Below, in pieces: positions 21,501 through 22,821 of a DNA stretch of 64,000 nt (positions are counted from its first letter, which is position 1; each line of letters starts with the position of its first letter). The notes under the pieces are model-generated. The model saw only the letters and a program-made list of their open reading frames with translations. It had not been told where the DNA came from and made no database searches. The DNA comes from Saccostrea echinata (lineage: Eukaryota), in NCBI RefSeq assembly GCF_033153115.1, contig NW_026889755.1, positions 8,928,001 through 8,992,000 of the forward strand, given 5' to 3'. The position numbers and the translations under genes were made by a program.

Positions 21501-21789
21501 AATTTAGAATTTAATATAATTTTGAATTTGTACCTTTTTATTTAATTTCTTGCTGATTTTTCAACTGTATGCTGGTGGTGGGGGGGGGGGGGGGAGCGCT
21601 ACTCTTCAATGTACCGACAGAGAAACCGCCTTGCTCATCTTGCAAGCACCACACGATCAGCGACCCGGCTCTACAGCTGGAATAAACAACTGTTTGGGTA
21701 GCGCAATAAACAAGTGTCTGGGTAGCGCTACTATATAAGGACAACAGGTCCAGCACAGTTATTCCAGTCGTGAAGCTTGAGAGACAGAG

Positions 21790-22821
21790 ATGCTGAAGAT
21801 AATGATGACGATTTTAGTTTTAGCCATTTTGCCAGTTGAAAGACCATGCAGTATTTCCAGTGAGTCTTTGTACTGTCCACATTTGCAACTTGCGGTATCA
21901 ACTTTTCAAAGCGATATCACCATTTCATACATCACAATTGACAACGCTGCTGCCACAGGACGGTTAATCGACCTATCCAGATTCACCAGTCTACAGAGGA
22001 TCCAGTTTTGAATACAGATTTATCACGTCAAGATTTCAAACTAACGAGTGGAACGACGCTGATGTTGAAAGACAAATATTGCGAGATAATTTTTAAATAC
22101 TTTTTTCATCACAGGGGTCAATCTTAATTTTATTATTATTTTGAAATAAAACAAGTTTTCCCTAGATTTAAATTCTTGTATCATAATTTACATTCATTAT
22201 TTAAAAAAGAAGATAGGACGATGATATATTATTGAAAGGTAGGTTGTTTGTGATCTAATGTTTTTTTTCGATTTGATTACAGTATTCCGCTACGACAGAG
22301 GCTAGCTACCACACAACAAAGTCGTTTACATCTGGACTTGTAGAGTCTGCAGAGGTGGCATTCAGTAAGTAAAACTAAGTTTCATAATGTGACAAATAAT
22401 TTACAGAATTTTACGTAAATCATTATCAGATCAATAAAAATCGATGAACAAACGATTTCAATAAAAATATAAATAATTTCAGACACCCCCTGGATCATTG
22501 CTACGGGGATCACGACGGGAATTGTAGTGTTATTTGTACTATGCGGAACTGTTCTGTTGGTTATGAGACTTTTCCGAAAGAGAAATTTGCAAATTCGTAT
22601 TGACACTGAATCTGTGCAAGAATTTAATGTACAGGAGTTTAGCATCATGCGAGAATTTAAATCGGACTGATTTCTTCATTGAAATGCTCTCTGTGATGGT
22701 CAAATTACTGATAGCTGTTTCTGAACGAGAAGAGCCCGTCCCTGCGCCTACTGAACATCAAAGAACCCCGCCGCCGCAACCAGTCCGCCCGATCCATAGA
22801 ACTTACGAAATGATGACTTAA
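21790..22821 (+). pseudogene. Spliced type-I membrane protein gene in Maverick A
   Basis: TATATAA at 21732 and CAGT at 21756. Signal peptide MLKIMMTILVLAIL; S/T-rich exon 22283-22364; exon from 22483 with TM WIIATGITTGIVVLFVLCGTVLLVM followed by RLFRKR; Pro-rich tail. Frameshifts and a mutated donor at ~22086. Confidence 0.68.

Follow-up and report, generated by a model that had tools for sequence, protein, structure and literature searches.

What does a small spliced gene encode that sits among Maverick-type genes in an oyster genome, and does it belong to the element around it? The question is raised by a locus at positions 21732–22821 of a 64-kb stretch of Saccostrea echinata DNA (the window, i.e. 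the 64,000 nucleotides analysed as a whole). A first-pass annotation had proposed an intact gene for one type-I membrane protein, in which a signal peptide, a Cys-containing ectodomain, an S/T-rich exon and a transmembrane (TM) exon are followed by a Pro-rich tail ending RTYEMMT.

A HMMER search of 1.84 billion representatives with exon 1 returned four proteins at E<=0.001, two of them full-length (E 2e-18, 62%). Both are isoforms of the uncharacterized S. echinata gene LOC133198664, that is isoform X1 (XP_061190685, 188 aa) and isoform X2 (XP_061190686, 178 aa). The other two (P0003, E 4e-4; P0004, E 7e-4) were discarded as chance matches to unrelated proteins of repetitive sequence. A word-based protein search with exon 1, which gave 0 matches among 25 candidates, was insensitive and missed both isoforms (P0001 and P0002). 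X1 and X2 have residues 1–126 in common, which cover the signal peptide, the ectodomain (~80 aa, four cysteines) and a 27-aa stalk rich in S/T. Isoform X1 then enters the TM exon and a tail ending KSD, with the same stop as at window position 22670. Isoform X2 uses a second acceptor ~200 nt downstream and is read in the other frame; it thereby acquires a hydrophobic anchor with one lysine, which spans the splice junction and is followed by a Pro-rich and then an Arg-rich tail. Hydropathy reaches 2.35 at the N-terminus and 2.76 and 2.58 in the two anchors, both of which score as TM helices. With the basic run after the helix and the helix in the AlphaFold2 (AF2) model, these values support the type-I membrane anatomy as proposed. 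Neither isoform of LOC133198664 contains an N-glycosylation sequon or a YxxΦ motif. We hold the anatomy and the existence of the two isoforms to be highly probable, isoform X2 being a RefSeq model and LOC133198664 the single annotated homologous gene found.

All exons of this relative map collinearly onto the plus strand of the window. Upstream, the annotated promoter elements were recovered: a 24-bp tandem repeat of 2.0 copies (21681–21728; 91% matches, TRF score 82) directly precedes a TATA-like box, TATATAAG at 21732, with an initiator-like CAGT ~25 nt 3' of it (21732–21768). None of 200 resampled sequences attained the repeat's score of 18, the highest among them being 10; the TATA and CAGT words make up a putative promoter. 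Coding exon 1 (21790–22088) starts with the ATG at 21790 and a hydrophobic N-terminus, followed by the Cys-containing stretch of the ~80-aa ectodomain; 45 of 72 plus 21 of 27 residues are identical to XP_061190685/6, split over two frames. Intron 1 (22089–22282), whose junction is implied by both RefSeq isoforms, has a non-canonical donor and a canonical acceptor. Exon 2 (22283–22364) is the S/T-rich stalk (S+T = 37%; 22/27 residues identical to RefSeq), and the intron that leads from it to the first acceptor, A (22365–22482), has canonical ends. Exon 3A (22483–22670), the isoform X1 end, is identical to XP_061190685 at 54 of 62 positions, the stop included. It comprises a TM helix at ~22509–22565 (best 19-residue hydropathy 2.61), a basic stop-transfer stretch, a cytosolic tail of 35 aa (tail A) and a natural stop. 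Exon 3B (22685–22795), the isoform X2 end, carries the second hydrophobic anchor and the Pro-rich tail in the other frame behind a non-canonical acceptor, B. The X2-specific residues 127–166 match window positions 22684–22803 with 70% identity (tblastn), and the exon 3B piece shares 28/45 residues with RefSeq X2.

This exon map is incompatible with a single protein running from the TM helix through a Pro-rich tail to RTYEMMT, and we rejected that model. As in RefSeq X1, the natural stop of the TM frame follows KSD (22670), and the Pro-rich stretch, which had been taken as its continuation, is part of isoform X2 and read in a different frame. That is, X1 and X2 share their 5' part and then use alternative 3' acceptors, so that 'TM exon' and 'Pro-rich tail' exclude each other as ends of the protein. 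We likewise abandoned the idea that the two frames are connected by a 46-nt intron or by a frameshift, since the RefSeq isoforms account for both frames and a related contig is unspliced across 22514–22795. RTYEMMT, finally, is not the native C-terminus. Positions 22795–22931 are a fragment of a high-copy genomic repeat, which has taken the place of the native exon 3B end and contributes HRTYEMMT with its stop. In four of four runs, many distinct contigs with unrelated flanks cover this fragment, at a bin depth of 63–2067 as compared to 0–3 over the exons upstream. The related contig (~92% identity) tracks the gene up to 22795 and there exits into letters encoding an X2-like Arg-rich end. Both observations identify HRTYEMMT as repeat-derived. 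Other copies of the repeat extend on both sides, which makes the stretch in the window an internal fragment; no clear second copy was found within the window.

Neither form can be made from the window copy, which is a pseudogene and not the intact gene initially assumed. The frame from the ATG at 21790 stops at 22012, exon 1 changing frame near 22005; the donor of intron 1 (22089) and the second acceptor (22683–22684) are non-canonical; and one of the four ectodomain cysteines is lost. Compared with LOC133198664, the copy is alike in exon order, junction phases and the stop of the X1 tail, with 62–87% identity per exon, and unlike in being broken and in having the end of exon 3B replaced by the repeat.

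Contigs of four public runs (four of the six listed) were aligned to window positions 18900–24800; no RNA record was listed for the stretch. In run X2, a join of exon 2 to exon 3A is represented by a single contig, which has the predicted ends and encodes the isoform X1 junction; its depth is 3.1, its short side measures 21 letters, and the run is tentatively regarded as RNA. A join to acceptor B was not seen in the contigs of the four runs. Contigs 99% identical to the window copy run unspliced over the promoter and intron 1, and the runs may therefore contain DNA. Three distinct versions of the gene were seen, namely the window-like one, the ~92% relative in the same runs and the RefSeq copy, as expected of a repeated element.

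Divergence between the window and RefSeq copies is uneven, with 57/80 identical residues in the ectodomain as compared to 32/35 in cytosolic tail A (p=0.017). This pattern suggests that most of the divergence arose while the gene was functional, as neutral decay alone would not be expected to produce it; conservation of tail A could in part stem from overlap with intron signals of isoform X2. A codon-frame test on 16 of the 23 differences of the related contig revealed no synonymous excess in any frame. The X2 tail may resemble retroelement or foamy-virus chromatin-binding peptides. In tail A, SVQE matches a relaxed form of the TRAF-binding motif. Such a match turns up in 8% of shuffled sequences, the related contig differs at this site, and the Px(Q/E)E form given in the accessible part of PMC6125299 does not occur in the tail; the motif was therefore given no weight.

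As annotated, the gene is flanked by a C2H2 zinc-finger gene on one side and by ORFs of PC4-like and P-loop type on the other, on the same strand as these neighbours and with compact spacing. The upstream zinc-finger gene (19741–21500, +; Pfam zf-C2H2, E 1e-4) is spliced and frameshifted, with tblastn pieces at 19741–21497; it is 63% identical to S. cucullata LOC134241510. The cluster of the latter includes a second copy on another contig (LOC134279913), and the zinc-finger gene is thus multi-copy. The downstream PC4-like ORF (23638–24130, +), also frameshifted, had no Pfam match; in the ESM Atlas (0.88) it shared 183–186 features with PC4 clusters, in which Mollusca is the commonest phylum. 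Invertebrate Mavericks typically carry zinc-finger and PC4-like genes. Beyond the PC4-like ORF lies the truncated 5' fragment of a P-loop ATPase (24322–24587, +), with sub-threshold Pfam matches to NTPase/HerA/FtsK/IVa2 (E 0.001–0.07). Retroelements cut the element at ~24.6 kb and leave a remnant of ~6 kb. A putative left terminus is marked by a 48-bp repeat segment (18870–18917; 96% identical to 24988–25035), which is cut at 18917/18918, exactly where AGTAGT (18918–18923, +) starts. Among the terminal motifs of vertebrate Mavericks, 5'-(AGT)2 ranks first in frequency according to the available part of PMC8097293. The plus strand of the window contains AGTAGT at 16 places. Within 220 nt of this terminus there are also three ATGGCG-type words (19030–19136), which we assume to be YY1-like.

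Neither polB, integrase, protease nor capsid genes were detected among the pieces scanned inside the 6-kb remnant or in the 150 of 159 ORFs of at least 58 aa scanned outside 18.9–33.1 kb. Likewise, no right terminal inverted repeat (TIR) or second copy of the left end of this truncated element was found within the window. Given these results, the case for a Maverick is built on the terminus and on the fragments of PC4-like and ATPase genes, from which the remnant is likely a truncated Maverick-like element. Further searches returned little: insensitive word searches with the zinc-finger and PC4-like neighbours gave no S. echinata protein (for the PC4-like ORF no candidate at all), Rfam gave 0 matches in 18500–25100, and prokaryote genomes searched with P0006 gave none. 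Among viral contigs, the PC4-like ORF, P0002 and P0007 had no matches, the zinc-finger piece had four confirmed stretches with 0 loci returned, and the ATPase fragment had seven short generic P-loop matches. No true locus for P0002 was obtained from metagenome contigs; the only one listed, L001, was discarded, being a match of low complexity next to a bacterial gene.

The surface-protein gene itself is situated 2.9–3.9 kb inside the left end (18918) and carries introns, as does nematode Maverick cargo within ~2–5 kb of the left end. Core genes are intronless and conserved across elements, whereas this gene is spliced and has one annotated homologous gene. Of 33 pairs, the 25 longest place no inverted arm of at least 40 nt close to the gene, which favours the cargo reading. 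No piece bridging the gene and a neighbour was present among the contig pieces listed. On balance, we consider it probable that the gene is part of the element. Of the earlier view of a spliced type-I membrane gene in a Maverick, the exons, the splice and the Maverick-like remnant stand, while the protein model was wrong and the copy is pseudogenised.

Several other features of the window were recorded. From 24580 to 33150, nested retroelements interrupt the ATPase fragment, presumably a Gypsy LTR with primer-binding site, a LINE and then Gypsy gag-pol remnants; the LINE (minus strand, ORFs 25121–30082) is inserted with a 12-bp duplication, GGCGACGAGGAT, at ~24809 and 30635. A second spliced type-I-membrane-like gene occupies 38880–40446 (-), with a hydrophobic leader and Cys-rich exon (40446–40131), a long Thr/Ser-rich exon (39660–39106) and a 3' part made up of a TM-like stretch, an apparent frame break and a short tail with NYDQI and NPYM. 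It had no Pfam match and no similarity to the gene studied here, and is possibly cargo of the same or another virus-like element. Beside it, 41000–42420 (+) holds a series of very short exons with canonical-looking splice sites; it includes an acidic stretch at ~42200, ends in SLLKKIFVKQIE and looks like further small spliced accessory genes. Two ORF pieces at 16654–16969 (-) match DUF6570 (E ~6e-4) and are, we assume, probably a Helitron remnant. Near-identical contexts at 1657/55601, 2803/4661/56759 and 3825/57874, within 1650–4670 and 55590–57880, point to a dispersed duplication of 2–3 kb. A 1.7-kb stretch is bordered by two partly inverted arrays (11140–11290 and 12975–13115) of short repeats of the GGGACTGCT type.

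In the ESM Atlas, the nearest neighbours of exon 1 are leucine-rich repeat (LRR) receptors and LRR N-terminal caps; the best value, 0.89 with 137 shared features, is sub-threshold (<0.9), and eight of the ten best family matches come from one clan. Pfam gave no LRR match for the protein, and sequence searches of the PDB gave nothing significant. AlphaFold is confident in the TM helix only (residues 129–161, pLDDT 81–92 in its blocks), with a pLDDT of 55 for X1 and 52 for its ectodomain. The structural comparison advised in the annotation yielded no significant match (none at E<=0.001) in PDB, BFVD or a wide VIA search with either model, and the best structural Z values, 4.3 and 3.8, come from these low-confidence models. 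The weak Foldseek rows of the full-length model include TrkA, LRRC26, LGR4, CD14, VLR, TSHR and GPIb. A truncated LRR ectodomain may thus be taken as a lead only.

Taken together, we lean towards cargo of an oyster Maverick/Polinton, namely an intron-bearing accessory gene of which the window has a pseudogene copy; with its anatomy, its cargo status and the function set out below as a favoured guess, this reading has somewhat better than even prospects. The annotation had spoken of a virus-like accessory surface protein, which is plausible provided that linkage holds in an intact element; the decoy or superinfection-exclusion role that it also suggested is conjectural. Should the gene be part of the element, its acting as a receptor mimic would fall just short of an even bet. 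In the annotated intact relative, the signal peptide, four-cysteine ectodomain and S/T stalk are spliced to either acceptor, giving rise to two single-pass proteins. Mechanistically, such a protein would be made in host cells that express the element and would reach the plasma membrane. There, the fast-changing, possibly truncated-LRR ectodomain would bind a host immune ligand or receptor, the two tails would couple the mimic to different cytosolic partners, and cells carrying or replicating the element would be protected.

The rival that survives best is a host oyster receptor-like gene, e.g. for a truncated LRR membrane protein, which was captured or inserted once and is carried as a passenger with a host function and no gain to the element. 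We grant this a limited but real chance. A promoter of its own, introns and alternative splicing are host-like, as are the LRR-receptor-like features, and RefSeq lists the intact homologue, which lies on a scaffold of 38.9 Mb, as an ordinary gene. In addition, nematode Maverick cargo is read as host-derived in the accessible text of 10.1101/2022.07.12.499685, and the available part of PMC8097293 reports no introns in intact vertebrate Mavericks. However, the neighbouring zinc-finger gene is spliced as well, and introns thus appear to be normal in this element. The shared strand and compact spacing, together with the several diverged versions, also speak against a passenger, and no conserved host family emerged among the 1.84 billion representatives beyond LOC133198664.

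The cargo reading may also be sharpened to a fixed Maverick gene for an alternatively spliced receptor mimic, with a minimal LRR-like ectodomain under diversifying pressure and two anchors and tails, a proposal we regard as rather unlikely. One of the two forms would then have an Arg-rich end and a lysine within the membrane span, by analogy a possible site of pairing with an adaptor. Quite improbable, in turn, is superinfection exclusion, in which the protein, displayed by the endogenous element, would shut out related Maverick particles by obstructing their receptor or their entry. A small surface protein with a fast-changing ectodomain would suit this task, and the spliced contig suggests expression from an integrated copy, but simple blocking does not call for two different cytosolic tails, one of them well conserved. 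A virion envelope or attachment protein like nematode MFUS-1, which would imply enveloped oyster Maverick particles, is highly improbable, since the precedent for a signal peptide and single TM helix in a Maverick is a protein of 866 aa, whereas the oyster protein has 178–188 aa with an ectodomain of ~80 aa, no sequon, no significant viral fold match and a spliced gene, in contrast to the intronless Maverick core genes described in the available text of 10.1101/2022.07.12.499685.

For the cargo reading, much depends on linkage in intact elements. If it holds, an undescribed, expressed cell-surface family would join the accessory repertoire of animal Mavericks and could provide an antibody target or transcript marker for asking if bivalve Mavericks behave as viruses against host immunity and, if so, in which places; one accessory gene would then give two membrane-anchored forms through acceptor choice. 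If the sharpened reading of a fixed, alternatively spliced receptor mimic also holds, Mavericks would remodel the host cell surface and immune signalling like large DNA viruses, which would be indirect evidence of an infectious stage in bivalves. If linkage fails, the locus is no more than the pseudogene copy of an oyster orphan gene amid transposon debris.

How does the gene compare with known systems? Extracellular LRR receptors with an N-terminal cysteine cap (TSHR, TrkA, LRRC26, VLR, GPIb) are alike in language-model features and weak Foldseek rows; unlike them, the oyster protein has no Pfam LRR or significant structural match, and room for at most two to three repeats. Mavericks have been noted in mollusc genomes (PMC10294476, as far as available), and the accessible part of PMC8097293 describes intronless core genes and flanking accessory regions for intact vertebrate Mavericks. 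In nematodes, the available text of 10.1101/2022.07.12.499685 places intron-bearing cargo in a 2–5 kb region inside the left TIR. This cargo (wasp proteases and krma kinases) is alike in being spliced and located 2–5 kb inside the left end, but it encodes cytosolic enzymes, whereas the oyster gene encodes a single-pass surface protein with two alternative anchors. Nematode Mavericks also encode a type-I fusogen of 866 aa, MFUS-1/PC1 (10.1101/2022.07.12.499685; 10.1101/2023.08.22.554363, both in their accessible parts), which shares with the oyster protein the signal peptide and one TM helix; it has a herpes gB-like (class III) fold, for which the oyster protein, with its short ectodomain and 27-aa stalk, gave no such match. 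Adintoviruses carry membrane-active and host-modulating accessory genes (PMC8502044; PMC11071296, as far as accessible). Their PLA2X, GasderminX, Cupiennin, Oncoid, Bcl2 and IAP (PMC8502044) are likewise accessory genes in animal Polintons, and section 3.2 of that article, in its available form, describes no spliced type-I surface protein among them. In the literature retrieved on Maverick/Polinton with bivalves or membrane proteins, the gene, the protein family and two-anchor splicing were not found; supplementary mollusc maps could bear on this novelty. Thus, the position, the introns and a membrane protein each have precedent in Mavericks, while the protein family and the splicing of one gene to two alternative anchors are apparently new.
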